Origin: Escherichia coli
Lineage (GTDB): Bacteria > Pseudomonadota > Gammaproteobacteria > Enterobacterales > Enterobacteriaceae
Strand: one strand, 5' to 3'
DNA length: 64,000 nt
Assembly: GCF_024700885.2 (NCBI RefSeq)
Contig: NZ_CP117016.1
The notes under the pieces are model-generated. The model was not told where the DNA came from and searched no databases. It saw nothing but the letters and a program-made list of their open reading frames with translations. A program made the translations under genes and the position numbers. Below, one piece after another: positions 2,234 through 42,706 of this stretch. Position 1 is the first letter of the stretch; each line of letters begins with the position of its first letter.

Positions 2234-5558
<3,325 letters not shown>

Positions 5559-5559
<1 letters not shown>

Positions 5560-6932
5560 TGACCACGCGCCTGACTCGCTGGCTAACCACGCTGGATAAC
5601 TTTGAAGCCAAAATGGCGCAGTTGCCTGCGGTACGTCGCTATGGACGATTAACCCGCGCTACCGGGCTGGTGCTGGAAGCCACCGGATTACAATTGCCGC
5701 TCGGCGCAACCTGTGTCATTGAGCGCCAGAACGGCAGCGAAACGCACGAAGTAGAAAGCGAAGTCGTTGGCTTTAACGGTCAACGGCTGTTTTTAATGCC
5801 GCTGGAGGAAGTGGAAGGTGTCCTGCCCGGCGCGCGTGTATATGCCAAAAACATTTCGGCAGAAGGGCTGCAAAGCGGCAAGCAGTTGCCGCTCGGTCCG
5901 GCGTTATTAGGTCGTGTTCTGGACGGTAGCGGTAAACCGCTCGATGGCCTGCCCTTCCCCGATACGACGGAAACCGGTGCGCTGATTACCCCGCCATTTA
6001 ACCCGTTGCAACGTACACCGATTGAACATGTGCTGGACACCGGCGTGCGCCCAATCAATGCCCTGCTTACCGTCGGGCGCGGGCAGCGTATGGGGCTGTT
6101 TGCCGGGTCGGGCGTTGGTAAAAGTGTGCTGCTGGGGATGATGGCACGTTACACCCGCGCCGATGTCATTGTCGTGGGTTTGATTGGTGAACGTGGGCGC
6201 GAAGTAAAAGATTTTATTGAGAATATCCTCGGTGCCGAAGGGCGTGCACGCTCCGTGGTGATTGCCGCCCCGGCGGATGTCTCTCCGCTTCTGCGAATGC
6301 AAGGTGCCGCCTATGCCACGCGCATTGCCGAAGATTTTCGCGATCGTGGTCAGCATGTGTTGCTGATTATGGACTCCCTCACCCGCTACGCGATGGCCCA
6401 GCGTGAGATTGCACTGGCGATTGGCGAACCACCTGCCACTAAAGGCTATCCACCGTCGGTGTTTGCCAAATTACCGGCACTGGTCGAGCGTGCCGGAAAT
6501 GGCATTAGCGGCGGCGGATCGATTACCGCGTTTTATACCGTGCTCACCGAGGGCGATGACCAGCAGGACCCCATTGCCGACTCCGCGCGGGCCATCCTCG
6601 ACGGTCACATTGTGCTGTCTCGCCGACTGGCGGAAGCCGGGCACTATCCGGCTATCGATATTGAAGCGTCGATCAGCCGCGCAATGACGGCGTTGATCAG
6701 TGAGCAACATTACGCGCGAGTGCGCACCTTCAAACAGCTGTTGTCGAGTTTTCAGCGTAACCGCGATCTGGTTAGCGTCGGCGCGTATGCCAAAGGCAGC
6801 GATCCGATGCTCGACAAAGCCATCGCCCTGTGGCCGCAGCTGGAGGGCTATTTGCAACAAGGCATTTTTGAACGCGCGGACTGGGAAGCGTCTCTCCAGG
6901 GGCTGGAGCGTATTTTCCCGACAGTGTCATAA
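5559..6932 (+). CDS. fliI: Flagellum-specific ATPase FliI
   Basis: 457-aa ORF with Walker A motif GSGVGKS. Confidence 0.95.
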
Positions 6933-6950: not shown

Positions 6951-7394
6951 ATGGCAGAACATGGCGCGCTGGCGACCCTGAAAGATCTGGCAGAAAAAGA
7001 GGTAGAGGATGCCGCGCGCCTGCTGGGTGAAATGCGTCGCGGATGTCAGCAGGCGGAAGAACAGCTCAAAATGCTGATCGATTATCAGAATGAATATCGC
7101 AATAACCTCAATAGCGATATGAGTGCCGGGATGACCAGCAACCGCTGGATCAACTATCAGCAGTTTATCCAGACGCTGGAAAAAGCCATTACTCAGCATC
7201 GCCAGCAACTTAATCAGTGGACGCAGAAAGTTGACATTGCCCTGAACAGCTGGCGAGAAAAGAAACAACGTTTGCAGGCCTGGCAGACACTGCAGGAACG
7301 GCAATCCACGGCGGCACTGCTTGCAGAAAACCGCCTCGATCAGAAAAAGATGGATGAGTTCGCCCAGCGCGCCGCCATGAGGAAACCTGAATGA
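6951..7394 (+). CDS. fliJ: Flagellar export protein FliJ
   Basis: 147-aa coiled-coil-rich ORF in fliI-fliK synteny. Confidence 0.92.
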
Positions 7395-8518
7395 TTCGCA
7401 TAGCGCCCTTGATTACCGCTGACGTTGATATCGCCACATTGCCTGGCGACAAAGCCAGCGATGCTGCACAAGATTTTCTCGCGTTGTTGAGCGAAGCATT
7501 AACAGGCGAGGCAACAACCGACAAAGCGACTCCCCAGTTGCTGGTGGCAACAGATAAGCCCACGACAAAAGGCGAGCCGCTGGTCAGCGATATTGTTTCC
7601 GACACGCAACAAGCAGATTTACTGATCCCTGTGGATGAAACACCACCTGTCATCAACGACGAACAATCCACATCAACACCGTTAACCACCGCTCAGACGA
7701 TAACGTTGGCTGCGGCGGCTGACAACAATACGGCAAAAGACGAAAAAGCGGATGATCTGAATGAAGACGTCACCGCCAGCCTGAGTGCCCTTTTTGCGAT
7801 GTTGCCGGGTTTTGACAATACGCCCAAAGTGACTGATGCACCGTCAACCGTATTACCGACAGAGAAACCAACGCTCTTCACAAAACTGACTTCTGCGCAA
7901 CTCACAACAGCACAGCCTGATGACGCCCCCGGCACACCAGCTCAGCCATTAACACCGCTGATAGCAGAAGCCCAGAGTAAAGCGGAAGTCATCAGCACGC
8001 CTTCGTCGGTGACCGCTGCCGCCAGCCCGCTAATCACTCCACACCAGACACAGCCACTGCCCACCGTCGCCGCGCCTGTTTTGAGTGCACCGCTGGGTTC
8101 TCACGAATGGCAACAATCATTAAGCCAGCATATTTCGCTGTTCACCCGCCAGGGGCAACAAAGTGCAGAGTTGCGTCTGCACCCGCAGGATTTAGGTGAA
8201 GTGCAAATCTCCCTCAAAGTGGATGATAACCAGGCGCAAATCCAGATGGTTTCACCGCATCAGCACGTGCGCGCCGCGCTGGAAGCAGCGCTTCCGGTAC
8301 TGCGTACGCAGCTGGCGGAAAGTGGCATTCAGTTAGGGCAAAGCAACATCAGTGGCGAAAGCTTTAGTGGTCAGCAGCAGGCCGCTTCCCAGCAACAGCA
8401 AAGCCAACGCACAGCAAACCATGAACCTCTGGCGGGGGAAGACGACGATACGCTTCCGGTTCCCGTCTCTTTACAAGGGCGTGTAACAGGCAACAGCGGC
8501 GTTGATATTTTCGCCTAA
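7391..8518 (+). CDS. fliK: Flagellar hook-length control protein FliK
   Basis: 375-aa Pro/Thr/Gln-rich ORF. Confidence 0.92.
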
Positions 8519-30053: not shown

Positions 30054-30580
30054 TGAACTGCACCCCAAATGTTGGACATAATCTGACATCTGAAGGTGCA
30101 GTTTATGAAACATTCATTTGAAGTAAAACTTGCCGCTGTAAATCATTACCTGGCTGGTCATGCAGGCATCATTTCTACGGCAAAACTCTTTCAACTTTCT
30201 CACACCAGCCTCTCACACTGGATTAATCTTTTTCTTCTTCACGGTCCTCGGGCACTGGATTGCAGACACAAGCGTAGCTATTCTCCTGAAGATAAACTTT
30301 GCGTGGTTCTTTATGCTCTCGGGCATTCTGAGTCTCTACCCCGGGTAGCTGCCCGGTTTAATATTCCCAGCCACAACACGGTTAAAAACTGGATAAAAGG
30401 CTACCGCAAATCTGGTAATGAGGCCTTTATCAGGCGCAGGAAGGAGAAAAGCATGACCCGTTCTGATGATACCCATGAAAACGAGGCAAACATGACGCCG
30501 GAAGAGATGAAGAATGAGCTGCGTTATCTTCGCGCAGAAAATGCATATCTGAAAGCCATGCAGGAGCATCTCCTGGAAAA

Positions 30581-31485
<905 letters not shown>

Positions 31486-31693: not shown

Positions 31694-32344
31694 TTGGCGA
31701 TTCGTCTTCATAAACTGGCTGTTGCTTTAGGTGTCTTTATTGTTAGCGCTCCTGCCTTTTCGCATGGTCATCACTCACACGGCAAACCCTTAACAGAGGT
31801 CGAACAAAAAGCTGCTAATGGTGTTTTTGATGATGCCAATGTACAAAACCGAACGCTCAGTGACTGGGATGGAGTCTGGCAATCCGTTTATCCTTTACTG
31901 CAAAGTGGCAAACTTGACCCCGTCTTTCAGAAGAAAGCGGATGCAGATAAAACTAAAACATTTGCTGAAATTAAAGATTATTATCGCAAAGGTTATGTGA
32001 CAGATATCGAGATGATTGGCATTGAGGACGGCATTGTTGAATTCCATAGAAATAATGAAACAACATCCTGTAAATATGATTACGATGGATACAAAATACT
32101 CACCTATAAATCAGGCAAGAAAGGCGTTCGTTACTTATTCGAATGTAAAGATCCTGAAAGCAAAGCCCCTAAATATATTCAATTTAGCGATCATATAATT
32201 GCACCACGAAAATCATCTCATTTTCACATTTTTATGGGTAATGATTCACAGCAATCTTTATTAAATGAAATGGAAAACTGGCCAACGTATTATCCCTATC
32301 AGTTGAGTAGCGAAGAAGTGGTCGAGGAGATGATGTTTCATTGA
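31694..32344 (+). CDS. zinT: Periplasmic zinc/cadmium-binding protein ZinT (YodA)
   Basis: 216-aa ORF with signal peptide and His-rich HGHHSHG; TTG start after a GGAGGA ribosome-binding site. Confidence 0.92.
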
Positions 32345-33013: not shown

Positions 33014-33075
33014 TGGCGGAGAGAGGGGGATTTGAACCCCCGGTAGAGTTGCCCCTACTCCGGTTTTCGAGACCG
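33014..33075 (-). other. Truncated tRNA-Ser(CGA) serU, 3' 62 nt only; prophage attachment-site remnant
   Basis: Minus strand reads CGGTCTCGAAAACCGGAGTAGGGGCAACTCTACCGGGGGTTCAAATCCCCCTCTCTCCGCCA (anticodon loop to CCA end of serU as recalled); the 5' part (D-arm and acceptor 5' strand) is absent. Confidence 0.85.
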
Positions 33076-33376
33076 ATGATACAGAGTCGAAAAATCAAAG
33101 AGTTAAAAATTTTTCTTGGAATAAATGTCTTAAAATCGTACAAGAAAAATCAATGAATTACATAACATTAAAGAAGAATATTCCAAGCCTTCTTGAGGCT
33201 ACCACCTGTTTTCAGGTGTCATTCAGACGTGATTTGCCCCAGATTGGGAAAGCACGCTTTTTTCTCAGCTTATTCCGTTTTGCCTGTGTGTTGAATAATT
33301 CCACTGCAGTTATATAAAATCGGTAACGTCTGGAAATCATTCAATACTCGCACTATCGAAAGTTCACCAGCCAACC

Positions 33377-33416
33377 GCAGCACGTTCTTGCATACGACGT
33401 GCTGCGGTTTTCTTTA
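33377..33416 (+). repeat. Palindromic hairpin element, copy B (near-identical to 1295-1335)
   Basis: GCAGCACGTTCTTGCATACGACGTGCTGC followed by GGTTTTCTTTATG; about 28 of 31 core positions match copy A. Confidence 0.5.
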
Positions 33417-33665: not shown

Positions 33666-34997
33666 ATGATTATCAACCAGGTACCTATAAAAATAAAAAT
33701 CTTCATCTTTTTATTTTCATGCATCTCTATTATATTTTTGTTACTGCATGAAAATAATGGAATATACATAACACAAACAACACAAATAAGTTATAGTGTT
33801 TTCATTATTGGGCTTTTTTTCATAAACCTGATGATTTTTATTTTTCTATTGCTTTACTATGTTTCTAATCAGAGACAAAGTTATCTCTTAATTCTTTCAT
33901 TCGCGTTTTTGAGCAACACGTATTATTTATTAGAAGTGGCTATTATTTCTTTATCTCCGTTAGGTAACGATTTATCTACAATCTATCAGAAATCAAATAA
34001 TATCGCAATATATTATCTATTCCGTCAGTTCAGCTTTATATCTATAATCTTTCTGGCTGTTTATTCCACCAATGTTAAAAATAAAAGTGTTTTAGAAGAT
34101 AAAAGAAACATAATAATTGTTGTTTTGTCAATATTAATTCTTTTTATTACTCCGTTTGTAGCAAAAAATCTAAGCAGTGACAATATAAAATATAGTCTTA
34201 ATATTATACAATACTCGCTGAATCGTCATTTGTCGACGTGGAATATCGTGTACACCAAAATAATATCAGTATTTTGGCTTGTATTACTTATCAGCTCATG
34301 CATCAGCATACGTAATTACTCAAAAATATGGTTGTGTATAATACTTATTAGTATAGTGTCAGTATGCAATAATCTAATTTTATTGTATTTTATTGATAAA
34401 TCCCATCCTGCATGGTACATGACAAAATTTCTTGAATTGATATCAATGATTTATATCATTTCAACACTCATGTATTATGTTTTTAGGAAATTAAATCATG
34501 CTAATCATATGGCAATTCATGATCCACTAACGAATACATACAATAGAAGATACTTTATTGACTCATTGAAGAACATATCAAAACACCATGATTTCTCAGT
34601 AATAATGTTAGATATTGACAGTTTCAAAAGCATCAATGACAAATGGGGGCATCATATGGGTGATCAAGTCATAGTAATGGTTACCAGAATAATAAAAAAA
34701 TCCATCAGGAAAGAGGATATATTAGGGCGCTTAGGCGGTGAGGAGTTCGGTATTATCATTAAAGGTAATACTCAAAAGCTCTTGCTATCAATTGCAGAGC
34801 GAATCAGAAAAAACATTGAAGAGCAATGCTCGGAAAAATTATTATCGCATGGACCTGAGAAAATAACTGTCAGTATTGGTTGCTTTACTTCAAAAGAGAA
34901 TAATCTCAGTCCATCTGAAATGTTAGTCAATGCCGACAAAGCGTTATATCAAGCCAAAAGAACCGGAAAAAACAAGGTGATAATTCACTCAAAATAA
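33666..34997 (+). CDS. Membrane-anchored diguanylate cyclase (multi-TM sensor domain plus GGDEF), DgcX-like prophage cargo
   Basis: 443-aa ORF; very AT-rich (I/L/F/N/K/Y-rich) N-terminal membrane domain; C-terminal GGDEF domain with RLGGEEFG active site and upstream RKED I-site-like motif. Confidence 0.85.
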   Translation: MIINQVPIKIKIFIFLFSCISIIFLLLHENNGIYITQTTQISYSVFIIGLFFINLMIFIFLLLYYVSNQRQSYLLILSFAFLSNTYYLLEVAIISLSPLGNDLSTIYQKSNNIAIYYLFRQFSFISIIFLAVYSTNVKNKSVLEDKRNIIIVVLSILILFITPFVAKNLSSDNIKYSLNIIQYSLNRHLSTWNIVYTKIISVFWLVLLISSCISIRNYSKIWLCIILISIVSVCNNLILLYFIDKSHPAWYMTKFLELISMIYIISTLMYYVFRKLNHANHMAIHDPLTNTYNRRYFIDSLKNISKHHDFSVIMLDIDSFKSINDKWGHHMGDQVIVMVTRIIKKSIRKEDILGRLGGEEFGIIIKGNTQKLLLSIAERIRKNIEEQCSEKLLSHGPEKITVSIGCFTSKENNLSPSEMLVNADKALYQAKRTGKNKVIIHSK

Positions 34998-35070: not shown

Positions 35071-35199
35071 CTATTCGATAATGGGTACTGTTGGCCATTC
35101 AATATCCGGTGCAGTTGTTGTATTAACACGGTTCAGCAACACCCGATACTTCTTCCAGGCTTCCAGCAACGAGGTTTCTTCCTCCGTTGCATATACAGC
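35071..35199 (-). pseudogene. 3' remnant of a lambda-type tail-fibre assembly gene (tfa)
   Basis: Encodes [42 protein letters not shown], matching the recalled C-terminus of lambda Tfa; no Tfa-like N-terminus upstream in frame. Confidence 0.6.
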
Positions 35200-35209
35200 C
35201 CACCTTTTT

Positions 35210-35518
35210 TCACCCACGATTAACCAACAGCCAGACCAGCAGACACGCCACCACCGGCACAGCAAAATCCATCAGGCTTGCCACATCCCACGCGCGCGGA
35301 TCAAAACCGCCCCACCACGGCATATTCATTCGCTTGCCATGCCCGAACATTTCGATCCAGCGATATTCTGCCTGGGTGTGTTCACGCGCAATGAAGAACG
35401 TACAACCGGCTATCGCCCCGTAAGCCCAGTTCCCGGTAAAAAGACCAATCAGTAGCTGCGCAGCCACAGCACAAAGCGCATGAAGGAAAGGTGTTATATC
35501 CATTTTCATCCCACCCAA
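35210..35518 (-). CDS. Hypothetical small membrane protein (phage cargo)
   Basis: 102-aa track ORF with two hydrophobic segments; no family recognised. Confidence 0.45.
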
Positions 35519-35545
35519 TAAAACGGGGCGCTCGGCCCCTTAATA

Positions 35546-36586
35546 TTATTTAGACGCAAGCGCCGCATCAATTGCAGATAATCTTTGTCTTAATTCTGCG
35601 TTTTCTTCTTCCAGTGCTGTTATTCTGTCGTCTGACTCTCTGGCTACCTGAACAAGCAAGCCAGTAACACCAGAATAATCTACTGTGTAATAACGTTCAC
35701 CTTCTTCACCTTCCGATCCGCTCGCACCGTCCTGATATTTCATTACGGAACCTACAACTTCTGGGATTGCTTCCAGAGCTTCCTGTGCAATGACACCAGC
35801 ATAGGGCATACCGTTTTCTTTAAGCGTGTATGTATAGCCGTTCATTTTACGGATGCGGTCGGTTGCATTATCGATCACCTGAATGTTGTCTTTCAGATCC
35901 CGGTCGGAATGCTGGTTAAATGCGGTGGCATGACATGCACCATTAACGCTTAACATATAGGTGTTATCGGTATTTTTCTGCGCATAGAACATATAAGCGC
36001 CACCATCAACACCGACTTCATAAACAACAGGACGGCTGGAGTTGCCCCACAATTGAGCAGTAACACCAGCATAAGCGGTTCCCTGTGTGTTTAATGTCAT
36101 GGTTGACCCATGATTGGCATATTTGATCTGTAATGTGTCGGTGTAATCAAATTTAATAAGCGCGTTACTTCCACGCTTGCTGTATGACATAAGGCAGTTA
36201 CCCATTTTGAGGTATCCGCTGTCACCGGGAAAAATCATCGTACCGCCATAAAGGTTGGTAAAGTCCCAGCAAATGTTTGTCCCGTTATCGTTCAGGTTAA
36301 GGCGCGCCATTGCGTTACCTGGACTGTCTATCCATTTTTTGAGGTATAGTTCGCAATACGCATCCTCAACACCTGCCGTCCTGTGAGTTGAGCGGAGTTT
36401 TCTCCCAAATATAGCTCCGCTAGTTGGCAATACCTGCTGATACCATGAAGCAGACCAGTCACCAACGATTTCATCTTTGCTGTCTACATATAATTTTGTT
36501 GCGTAGCTTCCTTGATCGTTTTTTAATTTGCTAACGTCGGATTTTAGCGTTTTGATGTCATCAGGAATTACTGTCGATGTAGCCAT
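35546..36586 (-). CDS. Tail-fibre / tailspike protein with C-terminal intramolecular-chaperone (S74-like) domain
   Basis: 346-aa ORF; C-terminal region with YTYTLKENG...GVIAQE...YSGVTGLLV and a coiled-coil tail resembles self-cleaving chaperone domains of phage fibres. Confidence 0.65.
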   Translation of the reverse strand: MATSTVIPDDIKTLKSDVSKLKNDQGSYATKLYVDSKDEIVGDWSASWYQQVLPTSGAIFGRKLRSTHRTAGVEDAYCELYLKKWIDSPGNAMARLNLNDNGTNICWDFTNLYGGTMIFPGDSGYLKMGNCLMSYSKRGSNALIKFDYTDTLQIKYANHGSTMTLNTQGTAYAGVTAQLWGNSSRPVVYEVGVDGGAYMFYAQKNTDNTYMLSVNGACHATAFNQHSDRDLKDNIQVIDNATDRIRKMNGYTYTLKENGMPYAGVIAQEALEAIPEVVGSVMKYQDGASGSEGEEGERYYTVDYSGVTGLLVQVARESDDRITALEEENAELRQRLSAIDAALASK

Positions 36587-36595
36587 TTTTCTTCC

Positions 36596-36877
36596 TCACA
36601 TCCAGCCACGAAGTTGATGCTCAACAGCAACCACGTATTCATCGAATAATGACGATATTTGCGAATCATTAATGATGCGCACGTTTACAAAATATCCGTC
36701 TTCCTTAACACATACCGGTTCGCCATCTTCAGTCAGTTCTCCGGTTTCTTTGTACACGTTACCTATCACGTCAATAAGAATATCATCCTGCATCGACTCG
36801 TCATCATAATAGCCAGTACTCTCCATAAAGGCCGAAAAGTCGGCCCTGTCGGCAAATTTGAGTGTTAAATCTTTCAT
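36596..36877 (-). CDS. Hypothetical acidic protein in the tail-fibre cassette
   Basis: 93-aa track ORF tightly coupled to neighbours; no family recognised. Confidence 0.45.
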   Translation of the reverse strand: MKDLTLKFADRADFSAFMESTGYYDDESMQDDILIDVIGNVYKETGELTEDGEPVCVKEDGYFVNVRIINDSQISSLFDEYVVAVEHQLRGWM

Positions 36878-39249
36878 TAGATTGACTCCCCCACCTGAGC
36901 ATCAGTCAATGCCTTGTGCCATATTCTGAAATTCCTGACATGACCAAATAAATGACGTAACCCGGCTGTAGTCTGGCCTCCAATACGGATAATTGCGGTG
37001 TTCTGAATACAGGACCATGTGGTTTTTGTTTCGCTGGATATATGCCCGTTACTTACTGAGCACGTAGACTGCTCTGACTTTACACGCATCCCCATAACCA
37101 TTTTTTCAAGCGATGCGTTTTCGTTTACCCGTCTGTTAGCTCCTCCAATATCGCAATAAGGAAATCCGTCGTAATCTGTTGAACGACCGAAGCCAAGAAT
37201 AATAGCCGCTCCGGTTTGATGACCGCCGGTATCAAAAACACGTGGCGCTGCATTTGGCGTTTTATACCAGTTCTTATGTACCTCACAAAGAACCGTAAAA
37301 GGAAGATTATAAAGATTATTCTTAATTGGAACTGTAACTATATCGCTTGCGCGGGTCGCCGCCGTCGCTCCTGATATAATAAAAGATGATACACAAGGCC
37401 CATCTTCTACTTGTGGGGTGGCCAGATAAATATAGTCACCAGATACGGTTGCCCCGCTCTGCTTAGGAGAATACTGTATCTGAGAGCCTATTTTAAACTC
37501 CCCATCAATTGCCTGAATTGTTGCCTCTGCAAAAATCCATCCGGTAGCTTCGTCCTTTCTGACTCTCGCTGTAATTCTTGAGGCAGCACCGCCTGTCATA
37601 TTAATTTCAAGCGTTTGTGTATCAATATACGCATCACCAAGAAAAGTTGTTGCGCTACCGTCATATTTATCAAACCGGATACGCAACCTTACCTGCAGTT
37701 CTGTTTTAAAACGACATGAGGTTGTCACGTGTTTATTATCGCCTGAGACATCAACTGACTTTGTTGCAGCAATTGATGCCATATTAATGGCTGAGGTTTG
37801 CCCAATCAGAGAATCGTTGCAGACAAACTTTCCATAGGTAAAACCAAAATTATCCGTCCCTGTTTCGGGCACATCCATATTTGACGATCGCCCCCAACTG
37901 GCAGGGCTTTCCGAATTGAGCATGTAGTTTGTTCTTTGCCCCTCAATAAGCAGGCCATCACGTTCAAATCGTGGCTCGTCAATGGCAGCCTCTGTCAGCA
38001 CACCAGATTTGTTAATATAGGTTGCTTTCGATGCACGTTTAAACTTAACAATCTTGTCGCCAGGCATCGTTATTTCATCGTCACCAATAACAATTTTTTT
38101 ATATGACGGCGAAAAGCCCGTAATCATATCCAGTGAATCGTTAAACGGTATCCACACATCAGGCAGTGGCTGTAAGACATATTTATACGGCTCTGCTGCC
38201 TGACTTGCATACTCTCTGGCTGCGTCTTCACTTGCTTTAGCTGCTGTCTGGCTTGCTGCCGATGCTTTCGCCGAGTTCGCCGCTGCAGTCTCGCTTGTCT
38301 TTGCATTGGTTTCACTGGTTTTTGCCGCTTTTTGACTGTTGGCTGATGCAGTGGCAGAAGCAGCCGCCGCGCTTGCAGAACCAGCTGCCGCGCTCTCGCT
38401 TTGGGCTGCTGCAACCTGGCTGTTTTTCGCCGCAGTTTCGCTGGCTTTGGCATTCGTTTCGCTGGTCTTCGCTGCCGTCTGGCTGGACTTTGCGTTAGTT
38501 TCACTCGTCTTCGCTGCTTTCTGGCTGTTAGCCGCAGCAGTTGCTGCTCCAGCTGCTGAAGTCGCAGAACCGGCTGCTGCGCTCTCGCTCTCAGCTGCTG
38601 CAGTCTGGCTGTTTTTCGCCGCAGTTTCACTGGCTTTGGCATTCGTTTCGCTGGCCTTCGCTGCCGTCTGGCTGGACTTTGCGTTGGTTTCGCTCGTCTT
38701 TGCTGCTGTCTCGCTATTTTTCGCGTTGGTTTCTGATTTTTTAGCTGCTGTCGCGGAATTTGCCGATGCAGTCTGCGAGGCCGCTGCCGCCTGTGCGCTG
38801 TTAGCTGCATTCGTTTCTGAGTTTTTCGCCGCGTTCTTCGATGATGCCGCTGCAGTTTCGGATTTCTTTGCCGCCGCTGCGCTCTGAGAGGCGGCTTCAG
38901 CGTTGCGTGCCGCTTCTTCCACCATTACCTCAAAACGACGCAATGCCTCCGGCATGACATCCTCTTCCGTCATGGCACCGAGAAAATCATTCAGCGTGCC
39001 TGGTCTGGAACCTTCATAGACGGTAATGGTCCCGGCATGTGAAGGCGGAAAACCTTCAACCAGCAGGGTGACGCTGTACTGGCCATACTCAACATCCATG
39101 CTGTAACGCCCGGCTTCATCCGGATTTTCAGAGGCCACCGTATTCACCAGTACCGTGGTGCTGTTACGCTTTGCTTTGAGCTGAATAGTGCAGTTCTGTA
39201 TTGGTTTTCCTGCACCGTCTTTCAGCACGCCTGAAATCTGTACTGCCAT
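36877..39249 (-). CDS. stf: Side tail fibre protein, lambda Stf-like N-terminus with Ala/Ser/Thr-rich repeat shaft
   Basis: N-terminus MAVQISGVLKDGAGKPIQNCTIQLKA resembles lambda Stf; track ORF starts two codons earlier at 39255. Confidence 0.8.
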   Translation of the reverse strand: MAVQISGVLKDGAGKPIQNCTIQLKAKRNSTTVLVNTVASENPDEAGRYSMDVEYGQYSVTLLVEGFPPSHAGTITVYEGSRPGTLNDFLGAMTEEDVMPEALRRFEVMVEEAARNAEAASQSAAAAKKSETAAASSKNAAKNSETNAANSAQAAAASQTASANSATAAKKSETNAKNSETAAKTSETNAKSSQTAAKASETNAKASETAAKNSQTAAAESESAAAGSATSAAGAATAAANSQKAAKTSETNAKSSQTAAKTSETNAKASETAAKNSQVAAAQSESAAAGSASAAAASATASANSQKAAKTSETNAKTSETAAANSAKASAASQTAAKASEDAAREYASQAAEPYKYVLQPLPDVWIPFNDSLDMITGFSPSYKKIVIGDDEITMPGDKIVKFKRASKATYINKSGVLTEAAIDEPRFERDGLLIEGQRTNYMLNSESPASWGRSSNMDVPETGTDNFGFTYGKFVCNDSLIGQTSAINMASIAATKSVDVSGDNKHVTTSCRFKTELQVRLRIRFDKYDGSATTFLGDAYIDTQTLEINMTGGAASRITARVRKDEATGWIFAEATIQAIDGEFKIGSQIQYSPKQSGATVSGDYIYLATPQVEDGPCVSSFIISGATAATRASDIVTVPIKNNLYNLPFTVLCEVHKNWYKTPNAAPRVFDTGGHQTGAAIILGFGRSTDYDGFPYCDIGGANRRVNENASLEKMVMGMRVKSEQSTCSVSNGHISSETKTTWSCIQNTAIIRIGGQTTAGLRHLFGHVRNFRIWHKALTDAQVGESI
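38340..38720. repeat. In-frame tandem duplication (about 189-bp unit, 2 copies) inside stf
   Basis: Near-identical DNA blocks about 38341-38530 and 38530-38720 encoding repeated KTSETNAKSSQTAAK-type shaft repeats. Confidence 0.7.
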
Positions 39250-39307
39250 ATTCACTCCACAAATAAAAAAGGCGCCATTTCTGGCGCCCGTATTTGGGTT
39301 ATAAAAC

Positions 39308-42300
39308 TCAACTGATACTGATACCGGCTGTTGATTTCTTCATCACGACAACAAGAAGGTCGCTGATACTGGTCGTTGGCGTCCAGTTATTAGCACCATA
39401 TGAAGAAACATTGAAAGTCAGGGTGACATGACCGTGTCCGGCAGGCATATCAATGACGGATGAAAATACCCTGCTGACATCCGTCGCGGGTTGCTGAAAG
39501 ATTTCCTGTCCGTTCTTCAGCACCTGCAGCTTACAGGTTGAATACCAGTATGACTGTTGGTTGTTGCTGTTGAAGTTTTCATGCTTACCACCGCGAAACA
39601 GAACGGGTGGGATTACTATCTGACGGTCAAAAGCCTGATCATCGTACACAGTGACCGTTATTGTACCGCTGGCATAACTGCCATTTCTCGGAAAGGCTTT
39701 TCCCACCGTTTTGACAATATCACCTTCAATCTGGTTGGCAGACAGTTTTCCCAGAATCCGACAGTTCTGGTTAATCGTGACATTATTGAGCGTCCCGGAG
39801 TTCGCATTCACGTTACCGCTGATATCGGCATTTTTCGCCGTCAGCCGCCCGTCCGGTGTCAGGGAAAATACCGGAGGATTGCCGCCGCTGGTAATGGTGG
39901 GAGCCGTCAGATACTTCAGGAACACTTCGTTCATGAATATCTGGTTGCCCTGCGCCACAAACATCGGCGTTTCATTCCCGTTTGCCGGGTCAATAAACGC
40001 GATACGGTTAGCGGCAACCAGGAACTGGCTCAGTTTGCCTTCCTCCGTATCCTCCATGCTGAGGCCAAGCCCCGCGACATAATGCCTGCCGTCTTCGGTC
40101 TGCTCAATTTTGACGCCCCACATGGCATTCCATTTATCGTTGGCGTCCTTCCACTCTTTCGAAAACTCCTCCAGTTTGCTGGCGTTATCCTCCGTCAGCT
40201 CGACTTTTTCCAGCAGCTCCTTGCCGAGATGGGATTCGGTTATCTGACCTTTGAAAAAATCCAGGTAACCTTCCGCATCATCGCTCGCCCGACCGACAGC
40301 CTCCACGAATGCCGATTTGCCAACGGTGTTCACACTGCGAACGTAAAAATAATAATCATGACCCGGCTTAATATTGATACTGGCAGCTATCCAGTACAGC
40401 GCCGTGCCAAGATAGCGGGCTGTGGTTTCAACCTGCCTGATATCCGCAATCCGCTTTTCCGAGAACCAGAACTCAAACTGTACCGTCGGATCATAAACGG
40501 CAAGATGCGGCGTGGCGGTTATCTGAAAATAGCCCGGCGTCAGCTCAATCCGCGATGGCGCTGCCGGTGCGGCAATCCGGAACGATACCGACGCCGGATC
40601 GCCCTGCTGCCCCCACGCATTTACCGCCCGGACTGTCAGACTGTAATTTCCCAGAGCCAGCTGCCTGAAGCGGTATGTGGTTTCCGTCGTCCGGGCTGTG
40701 CTGACCAGCCGCTCACTGCCGTCATCCGCTGCCACGGTCAGGCAAAGCATAAAGCTCACGCCCTTCACCACCTTCGGCGTATCCCAGCGCGCCAGCACCT
40801 GGTATTCCCCGCTGTCTGCGGTGACTTCTGCGGTCAGGTGTTGCACTGCTGGCGGAGTGACACCATTCACCGTGCCGCTCTGGTCGCCGTCAAAGTGCGC
40901 CCCGTTATCCACGATGGCTTCTTTCTCCGGCACATGCTGCACGGCAGTGATGGCATACGTACCGTCATCGTTCTCACGGATACTCACGCAGCGGAACAGG
41001 CGCTGGCGCAGCGTCGGCAGCTTCAGCCCCCACACGCTGTATTCTGCAACGCCGTCAGGAACCCGGCTCACTTTCACCTTCACGCCGTCGGTGACGGACT
41101 GGACCTCCACGCTGACCGGATTCCCCTGTCCGTCAACCAGGCTTATCAGCGTGGTGCCGGAGGATGGCAGCGTGATTTCACGGTCGAGCGTCAGTGTCCG
41201 CGTCTGGCTGTTCACCGCCAGCACGCGCCCGCCGATGCTGATACCCGCATAGTCATCATCACAGATTTCAATGACATCGCCCGGTACATGGCGAAGCCCT
41301 TCTGCACCCACGCTGAAGTCCACGGTCTGCGTTTCCAGCAGCTCCGTTTTAATCAGCCACAGCCCGGCGCGGTGTGCCTGCCCCCGGCTGGTACAGCCAA
41401 AGGCATCCATCTTCGTGACGTTACGACCGTAACGGGCAATGGCCTGCGTATCTTCAACAAGCTCTGTCGCCGTCTCCCAGCCGTTATTCGGGTCAATCCA
41501 GTTCACCTCAACGGCATTATGGCGGTCCTTCAGGGCGCTGAAGCTGTAGCGGAACGGCGCGCCATCATCCGGCATCACCACATTACTGCGGTTATAGGTC
41601 CACACCTTATCCGACGGTCGGTCCTGCACGAACGTCAGCGTCTGCCCGTTCCATACCGGCATACAGCGCATCGCCGAGCAGAAATCACTGAGAACATCCC
41701 ACGCCTTACGCTGTGTGGTCAGCCAGGCATTACAGGTGATGCGCGGCTCCGTGCCACCAAAGCCATCCGGCACTGACTGATCGCAATACTGGCCGATGAC
41801 ATACAGCGCCCATTTGTCCACATCCGCCGCACCAAGACGTTTCCCCATGCCGTAGCGCGGGTGGGTCAGCATATCCCACAGACACCAGGCCATGTTGTTG
41901 CTGTATGCCGGTTTAAACGTCCCGTCCCAGATACCGTTGTATTGCCGCGTCTGCGGGTTATAGTTCGACGGCACCTGCAGAATGCGCCCGCGAAGATGAT
42001 AATTACGGCTCACCTGCTGGCTGCCGAACTGTTCCGAGTCCACCTGCACACCGACCAGTGCCGTGTTCGGGTAGCACTGTTTCACATCGATGATTTCGGT
42101 GTATGACGACCAGAGCGTTTTGTTCTGCAGCTGGTCTGTGGTGCTGTCCGGTGTCATCCTGCGCATCCGGATATTGAACGGGCGCGGCGGCAGGTTATCC
42201 ACCACCACCGAGGCCAGATACTGCGAGGTGGTTTTGCCCTTAATGGTGATGTCTTTTTCCGTCACCCAGCCACCGTTACGCTGTATCTGAACCAGCAGGC

Positions 42301-42706
42301 GGACTTCCGACGGATTCCGGTCCCCCTTTGAAGTGGTTTCCACCAGAGCCTGCACACCGAAGGTAAAGCGCAGACGGTCGATGTTTGCAGACGTGATGGT
42401 CCGGGTGATCGGCGTGTCATATTTCACTTCCGTACCCAGCACCGTCTCGGATCCGGAGGATTCAAAACCCTCCGGCGGTGTCTGCTCCTGCTCACCTGCC
42501 CGGAACACCACCGTGACACCGGCGATGTTGGTATTCCCTTCACTGTCCAGCACCGGCGTACTGTTCAGCAGCACGCTTTTTAATCCATCCACCGGACCTT
42601 CTATCGGCCCTTCGCTGATGGCATCGATCACACTCAGTAACTGCGTGGATTTCAGGTTGTCCTTCGCTTCGCGTGGGGTATGCCCCTTACTGCTGCCTTT
42701 ACCCAT
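39308..42706 (-). CDS. J: Tail tip host-specificity protein J
   Basis: 1132-aa ORF, the same length as lambda J; N-terminus [43 protein letters not shown]. Confidence 0.95.

Follow-up and report, generated by a model that had tools for sequence, protein, structure and literature searches.

Probable replacement of a lambda-type stf-tfa pair by a Tfa-independent side tail fibre module in an Escherichia coli prophage

The side tail fibre locus described here lies in a 64,000-nucleotide stretch of Escherichia coli DNA (contig NZ_CP117016.1), called the window below, and belongs to a lambdoid prophage. On the minus strand it encodes, in this order, the tail-tip protein J, the side tail fibre protein Stf, an acidic protein of 93 residues, a second fibre protein of 346 residues, a protein of 97 residues with two transmembrane segments and the 3' end of the tail fibre assembly gene tfa. 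The locus is most probably the product of an exchange in which an ancestral stf-tfa pair was replaced by a fibre module that does not depend on Tfa, leaving a scar of tfa behind. The ancestral pair would have been of the lambda or Rac type, and the replaced part would extend from about the boundary between the shaft and the head of Stf to codon 155 of tfa. A first-pass annotation, made from the sequence alone, had read the locus as a cassette exchange with one breakpoint at the extreme 3' end of tfa. This interpretation is borne out by comparison with a prophage in which tfa is intact.

The tfa remnant and the limits of the exchange

The remnant of tfa is situated at 35071-35191, where it forms the right-hand homology block of the locus and consists of 39 codons followed by a stop codon. 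It is annotated by the Prokaryotic Genome Annotation Pipeline (PGAP) as a pseudogene, 'tail fiber assembly protein, missing N-terminus'. Between 35072 and 35191 the sequence is 89% identical to the last 120 nucleotides of lambda tfa. Its translation is identical to residues 156-194 of lambda Tfa at 33 of 39 positions (E=4e-22) and to the intact protein TfaR at all 39, and it also matches the C-terminal ends of four PHROG families of tail fibre assembly proteins (phrog_188, 105, 136 and 3792) and of two families lacking annotation. The survival of 42 codons had been proposed earlier; the remnant is real, but the homology covers 39 codons and the stop codon. A complete open reading frame (ORF) for Tfa, of about 190-200 residues, was not found after stf. 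When lambda Tfa and TfaR were searched against the window in all frames with tblastn, residues 156-194 were the only part recovered, confirming that the remnant stands without the rest of the gene. There is neither an ATG nor a ribosome-binding site at the start of the scar, and a consensus scan found no terminator-like hairpin inside 35071-35191.

The similarity to lambda is confined to three blocks: J down to position 39774, the first 367 nucleotides of stf (39266-38900) and the end of tfa (35191-35072). A prophage of E. coli NCTC11476 has the gene order J-lom-stfR-tfaR-dgcX-sitDCBA, in which stfR encodes 1117 residues, tfaR is intact (194 residues) and dgcX encodes a diguanylate cyclase. 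The window and this prophage are 98.6% identical over 1,884 bp (35191-33311), a region comprising the last 120 nucleotides of tfaR, dgcX and sequence beyond it. Between the scar and the 3' end of the intact tfaR the identity is 100%, and it extends to the first bases past the stop codon. Collinearity starts exactly at the tfa breakpoint, 35191, and the 3.7 kb between the 5' block of stf and this position are unrelated to NCTC11476. The join is sharp: the sequences are identical from TGCAACGG onward and unrelated before it, and no microhomology is evident in the alignment.

These comparisons support the view that the window and NCTC11476 represent a natural before-and-after pair for a cassette replacement, with its right end at tfa codon 155/156. 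Alignment to lambda stf-tfa and to other lambdoid cassettes places the breakpoints at about 38190 and at 35191. The right-hand join would have been illegitimate, leaving the 39 tfa codons as a non-coding scar. The complete identity of the scar to tfaR appears to be explained most simply by a later homologous crossover inside the scar, which would have brought in a tfaR-type end together with dgcX. As the N-terminal anchor of Stf and the 3' end of tfa are conserved among lambdoid phages, they may act as homology arms that move the cassette and its cargo, here dgcX, between lambdoid phages and prophages. Experiments in which lambda underwent homologous recombination with Rac and Qin by way of stf/tfa (PMC3945230) agree with such a role. 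It is reasonable to expect that the host range differs from that of the stfR-tfaR form.

The incoming genes

The stf gene (36877-39255) starts 53-59 nucleotides past the stop codon of J, downstream of J in the late operon. It encodes 792 residues when read from a GTG codon and 790 residues from the ATG at 39249 chosen by PGAP. The N-terminal virion attachment domain (38857-39249) forms the left-hand homology block and is of the lambda type, as had been recognized in the first-pass annotation. Residues 3-133 match PF08400 (E=1.5e-66), the N-terminus matches PDB entry 9e7m, 'Tail fiber protein' (E=9e-49), and the first 367 nucleotides are 85% identical both to lambda orf-401 and to stfR. The domain is followed by an Ala/Ser/Thr-rich shaft (about residues 134-355; 38191-38856) made of tandem repeats with periods of 189, 42 and 21 nucleotides. 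The shaft is similar at the level of composition to that of lambda Stf and to a T5-like lateral tail fibre (LTF). The shaft had been taken as the point where the gene departs from lambda. The repeats are there, but lambda Stf has the same Ala-rich shaft (55% identity over 349 residues), so that the true divergence begins at about residue 355, near 38190.

The putative receptor-binding distal half of Stf (about residues 356-792; 36877-38190) is the replaced part of the protein. Past the shaft there is no similarity to lambda, and a Tfa-dependent tip of the lambda/T4 gp37 type was not found; nor was a PF13884 domain found in Stf. Residues 436-636 (37348-37950) match the NCBIfam family NF048003, GTA_spike_fiber, with 51 bits against a curated cut-off of 36. 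A profile of nine related Stf heads matches the head spike fibre of the Rhodobacter capsulatus gene transfer agent (RcGTA; PDB 6tb9) over about 240 residues with E=6.5e-29. Residues 736-788 (36892-37050) give a weak match to a concanavalin/Laminin_G_3-like domain (PF13385; E=0.018). Among nine Stf relatives, E is at most 1e-3 in three and at most 0.1 in seven, and the precomputed Laminin_G_3 hits on one relative are weak or faint. The incoming distal half would consist of the domain homologous to the RcGTA head spike fibre and a concanavalin-like end. A polysaccharide receptor for Stf may be guessed from these lectin-like and spike-like domains.

The acidic protein of 93 residues (36596-36877; phrog_1361) would be the second incoming component. 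Its ORF, present as described in the first-pass annotation, starts by overlapping the stop codon of stf (ATGA), in the position held by tfa in lambda, and would be translationally coupled to stf. The protein has a pI of 4.05, with 21 Asp and Glu residues and seven Lys and Arg residues. It gave no match in sequence searches of Pfam, NCBIfam, PADLOC or the PDB. Large protein searches for the small cassette proteins returned the name 'hypothetical protein' only, and literature searches found nothing specific on the function of the cassette or of the small ORF. The AlphaFold2 (AF2) model of the protein has a predicted local distance difference test score (pLDDT) of 86.5. The family forms 51 clusters at 50% identity among 1.8 billion proteins.

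Homologues of this protein are encoded directly after lateral fibre genes in metagenomic contigs and in six phage groups: lambdoid, N15-like (PhiR46_1), Nonagvirus (ESCO3, JenP2), T5-like, Drexlerviridae (KarlJaspers) and Vequintavirus (EmilHeitz). In every context the preceding fibre ends in '...RHLFGHxRNFRIWHKxLTDxQ'. The protein is 54% identical to a 92-residue ORF of phage 21. Relative to that phage, it has diverged together with the last 120 or so residues of Stf, while the Stf head and the membrane protein are still about 90-96% identical. Phage 21, ev207 and one further locus have the small protein but no second fibre, which ties the role of this protein to the first fibre. It may be a dedicated assembly partner of the Stf tip, with which it would co-vary, or a tip accessory.

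The third component would be a short second fibre (346 residues; 35546-36586; phrog_4563), in which a variable head is preceded by the conserved motif MATSTVIPDDIKTLK at the N-terminus and followed by an intramolecular chaperone at the C-terminus. The chaperone, already noticed in the first-pass annotation, begins at residue 227 (35549-35908), and residues 227-278 match Pfam Peptidase_S74 (PF13884; E=1.5e-13). In a set of 26 homologues, hardly any variation is seen at S227, D228 and K232 of its S-D-x-x-x-K motif. From this conserved Ser-Lys motif an autoproteolytic release of the chaperone is predicted, and the fibre would fold with the help of its own auto-cleaving domain. The 346-residue protein had been regarded as the replacement fibre. 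It is indeed incoming, but it is an optional addition, and the distal half of Stf from about residue 355 and the 93-residue ORF are incoming as well. The second fibre is found in Tritos-type phages, PhiR46_1 and ESCO3 and is absent from phage 21 and ev207.

No tail attachment domain is detectable in the 346-residue protein. Its first 17 or so residues (MATSTVIPDDIKTLKSD) are common to otherwise dissimilar products of the third gene, such as those of T5_ev219 (573 residues) and KarlJaspers (225 residues), and the N-terminus M[AV]TxTxIPxDIxxLK is conserved among third-gene products that otherwise differ. In homologues that are 38-47% identical, the same motif is placed ahead of variable numbers of heptad-like repeats. 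This pattern suggests that the motif is a docking peptide, by which the second fibre would be attached to the Stf complex to form a branched side fibre of two proteins and two specificities. Such a fibre would probably bind surface polysaccharide.

The Stf head, the 93-residue gene and the second fibre are shared with the virulent Nonagvirus ESCO3 as one block of 2.56 kb at 94.5% identity. Since the block is shared whole, the three genes move together. It occupies 35610-38172 in the window and 4001-6563 in the stretch of vB_EcoS_ESCO3, so that within the distal half of Stf the similarity begins at 38172. The sharing is the result of a fairly recent exchange between temperate and virulent phages. 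Exchange of this kind was not detected in a set of 84 genomes (De Paepe et al. 2014).

The fourth component, a small membrane protein, travels separately. The protein (35210-35503; phrog_1443) has two hydrophobic segments in a hydropathy analysis. The open frame of 102 residues described earlier exists (35210-35518, from a TTG codon), but the product is more likely to start at the ATG at 35503 and to have 97 residues, as in the PGAP annotation and in that of phage 21, to whose 'putative membrane protein' it is 96% identical. In the P22-like phage Gally a homologue follows the tailspike gene, in phiHAP-1 one follows tfa, and in a P2-like Leclercia prophage one comes directly behind an S74 fibre gene. 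In Comamonas a homologue is found two genes after a J-like tail-tip gene. The gene moves independently of the other cassette genes, usually close behind a receptor-binding gene, and the new block is in this respect not the single cassette that it had been taken for.

The membrane protein has no sequence match in Pfam, NCBIfam, the defence-system collection PADLOC or the PDB. The gene was also considered as a phage moron, a lysogenic-conversion gene that is expressed autonomously from a promoter and terminator of its own: independent mobility is observed, a terminator-like hairpin is present upstream only, and a consensus scan found no promoter-like site. The predicted hairpin, which is GC-rich, lies at 35525-35539 (minus strand) in the gap between the gene of the 346-residue fibre and the membrane gene. 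A homologue with 58% identity lies in the chromosome of Aeromonas rivipollensis (6001-6309 of the stretch examined) among ordinary genes for pirin, a RIO1 kinase and lipid A acyltransferases, with no phage genes nearby. This lone chromosomal copy indicates that the family is not strictly phage-borne.

Age of the exchange, alternative explanations and prophage setting

The whole cassette and the scar are 98% identical in phages Tritos, PhiR63_1, HannyBb and 2G7b. A probe of 231 nucleotides across the junction, counted where at least 80% of it was covered, was recovered from no fewer than 921 of the 5,426 complete E. coli genomes (about 17%, or one in six). A truncated form of the scar occurs in many more E. 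coli genomes, and in 363 genomes one place accounts for 80% or more of the 4.5-kb query. The junction between the membrane gene and the scar is unchanged in phage 21 and ev207, but there the scar is about 58 nucleotides long, ends at window position 35134 and is joined to sitD. The scar of Tritos has, near its end, a gap of four alignment columns followed by divergence, and PhiR46_1 and Gally, both with the 97-residue gene, have no scar. Such lineage-specific decay fits a non-functional remnant. Several active phages carry an identical junction; the exchange did not happen in this strain and is an old, shared event. The possibility that the scar travels with the membrane gene was rejected, because Gally and PhiR46_1 carry the gene without the scar.

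The observation of an exchanged cassette is correct but ordinary, since known phages, as well as roughly one complete E. coli genome in six, carry this cassette together with the remnant. It is also already known, the exact cassette being present in GenBank phages and the tfa pseudogene being annotated. That tail fibres are mosaic, combining a conserved anchor with an exchanged tip, is textbook knowledge.

In Tritos a gene for a PinR-type invertase (7348-7938) is found immediately downstream of the same tfa scar, perhaps left over from a fibre segment that could be inverted. With pinR beside the scar in Tritos, the scar was also considered as an inversion site of the Pin/Gin type. This was rejected, as there is no invertase in the present prophage and the position of the site would be wrong. 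In the G and P invertible segments the crossover sites are located at the joint between the constant and variable parts of stf and beside the invertase, not at the 3' ends of tfa.

There is virtually no chance that a frameshift or an assembly error conceals a full-length tfa, in which case no scar would exist. The frame of tfa does reach upstream to a TTG at 35265 (35071-35265, 64 residues), but the 25 extra residues have no similarity to Tfa, and the upstream sequence encodes the conserved 97-residue membrane protein in another frame. The explanation is refuted by the tblastn search described above, and the identical junction occurs in independent phage genomes besides the complete E. coli genomes counted with the probe. 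That the remnant is kept for a function of its own, be it as a small ORF, as a regulatory RNA or in terminating transcription of the fibre operon or of the convergent dgcX, is very unlikely. It would be in keeping with the retention of the junction in about 17% of complete genomes, with an identity to the intact allele that shows no decay, and with the place of the remnant between convergent genes, where a terminator is expected. However, the remnant has neither a hairpin nor a start signal. It is also shortened in phage 21 and ev207, gapped and diverging in Tritos and absent from PhiR46_1, Gally and ESCO3, all of which are viable phages. Moreover, the identity to tfaR continues into the flanking dgcX block, which fits hitch-hiking or recombination better than selection on the piece itself. 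An exchange that is recent and private to the prophage of this strain, marking a fresh shift in host range, is more improbable still, although the right flank is 98.6% identical to a prophage that still has stfR-tfaR and the scar is undecayed. The same left and right junctions and an 18-nucleotide spacer are found in Tritos, 2G7b, HannyBb, PhiR63_1, phage 21 and ev207, in addition to the 363 genomes with most of the query and the 921 with the junction. What may be recent is the crossover inside the scar that brought the tfaR-type end and dgcX; the insertion of the cassette is not.

It is doubtful that the 346-residue protein is an independent fibre or spike, attached by itself or through the 93-residue protein as an adaptor, or that the 93-residue protein is a structural adaptor and not a chaperone. 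The small protein is always situated between the two fibre genes when both are present, as an adaptor might be, but it also occurs where there is no second fibre, and the 346-residue protein lacks a detectable domain for attachment to the tail. As to the 93-residue protein, the evidence fits the role of an adaptor and that of a chaperone alike.

Some observations weigh against the replacement of stf-tfa by a Tfa-independent, branched fibre module as it is proposed here. The complete identity of the scar to an intact tfaR allele could point to recent recombination rather than to an old neutral remnant. The second fibre is absent from phage 21 and ev207, and the third gene is a different one in EmilHeitz and at two other loci, so that docking onto Stf is argued for by gene order and a short motif only. 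The AF2 monomer model of the 346-residue fibre is poor (pLDDT 57; predicted template modelling score, pTM, 0.28). Searches with this fibre recovered Peptidase_S74, but the model was too poor for a fold search and gave no receptor prediction. The Laminin_G_3 match of this Stf (E=0.018) is weak. Finally, the integrase gene of the prophage, beside the serU end and outside the window, is frameshifted in the RefSeq annotation; for this reason the prophage may be unable to excise, and this copy may never make particles.

A wider interpretation is put forward tentatively. The fibre with its spike-like head and lectin-like domain, the protein of about 92 residues and the optional short S74 fibre with the N-terminal motif given above might together be an uncharacterised, exchangeable side fibre system that is independent of Tfa and is found in temperate and virulent coliphages (lambdoid, N15-like, Nonagvirus, T5-like, T1-like and rV5-like). 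In such a system the 92-residue protein might be a new assembly factor or adaptor of the fibre tip, the second fibre might dock by its N-terminal peptide, and the 97-residue protein may be a linked factor related to entry or exclusion.

The 4.5-kb fibre region is a 100% match to the chromosome of E. coli MLI114 (NZ_CP117013), the window being the reverse strand of the record. The locus forms the right end of a lambdoid prophage of about 44.5 kb integrated at serU. In the surrounding 49 kb the RefSeq annotation lists tRNA-Ser (serU), Rac/Qin-like early genes, and lysis, head and tail genes up to J. The attachment site attR (33014-33075, minus strand) is a 62-bp repeat with a 100% match to the last 62 nucleotides of the intact tRNA-Ser on the opposite side of the prophage. 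Its position places the fibre cassette and the diguanylate cyclase gene inside the prophage. Two prophage tRNA genes follow a Q-like antiterminator gene (63617-63693 and 63800-63875, minus strand). They are Arg(tct) and Met(cat) according to ARAGORN, and the second one is named tRNA-Ile in RefSeq. Outside the prophage, just past zinT (31694-32344), lies an IS1397 transposase of the IS3 family (about 30105-31453).

The upstream end of the fibre locus is marked by J (39308-42706, minus strand; 1132 residues; gpJ in PGAP). Its similarity to lambda J, at 94%, stops at 39774, and the remaining 465 or so nucleotides (39308-39774, about the last 155 codons) have no nucleotide similarity to lambda J. 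This non-lambda end suggests a receptor other than LamB. Lambda, NCTC11476 and PhiR46_1 have the gene lom between J and stf; here it is missing from the corresponding gap (39256-39307). A terminator-like hairpin is predicted by the consensus scan in the gap (39270-39289, minus strand), and a terminator is annotated at the matching site of phage 21.

On the other side of the locus, the gene for the diguanylate cyclase DgcX (33666-34997, plus strand; GGDEF domain; about 27% GC) is b-region cargo and forms the conserved right flank. It is 99% identical to the E24377A gene that was named dgcX by Richter et al. 2014 (PMC4287979). The gene is found in convergent orientation right after the 3' end of tfa at three integration sites: serU here, near uspF in NCTC11476 and att-lambda in E24377A. 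Between dgcX and attR, RefSeq annotates a 72-nucleotide 'capsid protein' pseudogene fragment (33315-33386), where the collinearity with NCTC11476 stops (33311).

The range of E. coli strains within reach of a temperate phage is decided by swaps of fibres, which thus shape the spread of prophage cargo, here the biofilm-promoting cyclase DgcX. The locus provides a clean natural case of a swap before and after, in which the 5' end of stf and the 3' end of tfa bracket the exchangeable part. For the engineering of lambda-based delivery, the Stf head, the 93-residue gene and the self-chaperoned fibre would be a compact Tfa-independent module that is already present in viable phages. Current understanding is unchanged by these results; the residual interest lies in the uncharacterised families of about 92 and 97 residues and in the before-and-after pair.

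Comparison with known systems

The locus resembles the Stf-Tfa systems of lambda (Ur-lambda) and Rac in its place after J, in the PF08400 anchor (about 83% identical over some 120 residues), in the Ala-rich shaft and in the last 39 codons of tfa. It differs from them in the unrelated distal half of Stf, in the lack of lom and of a functional tfa, and in the three other genes that separate stf from the end of tfa. Tritos (OV696610), 2G7b, HannyBb and PhiR63_1 have all five elements, the scar included, in unchanged order and with a nucleotide identity of 98%. Phage 21 (OL657228) and ev207 have a homologous Stf head (about 90% identical in phage 21), a homologous 92-residue ORF, a membrane gene that in phage 21 is 96% identical, and the scar junction, but they lack the 346-residue fibre and have another Stf tip and a shorter scar. 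The downstream cargo is pinR in Tritos, sitABCD in phage 21 and dgcX here.

The domain of the Stf head is related by profile homology to Rcc01080, the head spike fibre of RcGTA (PDB 6tb9; NF048003). In contrast to Rcc01080, which is located on the capsid, the domain belongs here to a side fibre of a siphovirus tail and is followed by an extra lectin-like domain. The second fibre shares PF13884, the conserved Ser...Lys cleavage motif and the coiled coil that follows it with the S74 chaperone fibres, such as the K1F endosialidase and T5 pb1. Unlike in these proteins, its mature part is very short, about 226 residues, its N-terminal motif is common only to the third-gene fibres of the module, and its cleavage is predicted.

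The arrangement of two fibres can be compared with the branched lateral fibres LtfA/LtfB of the T5-like phages DT57C and DT571/2, for which a model with the second fibre suspended from the first by its N-terminus has been proposed (Golomidova 2016; PMC4728585). The two systems have in common two tandem fibre genes, a second fibre without homology to tail attachment proteins and a Peptidase_S74 chaperone in the second fibre. According to the same source, LtfA has an S74 chaperone of its own, whereas the first fibre here has none and has a lectin-like end instead. An ORF of about 92 residues separates the two fibre genes here, and a term search of PMC4728585 gave no mention of a small ORF. The N-terminus of DT57C LtfB is described there as homologous to phiEco32 gp15; the putative docking motif of the present fibre appears to be a different sequence. 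The likeness suggests that branching of the second fibre from Stf would be analogous to that of LtfA/LtfB, though molecularly different from it.

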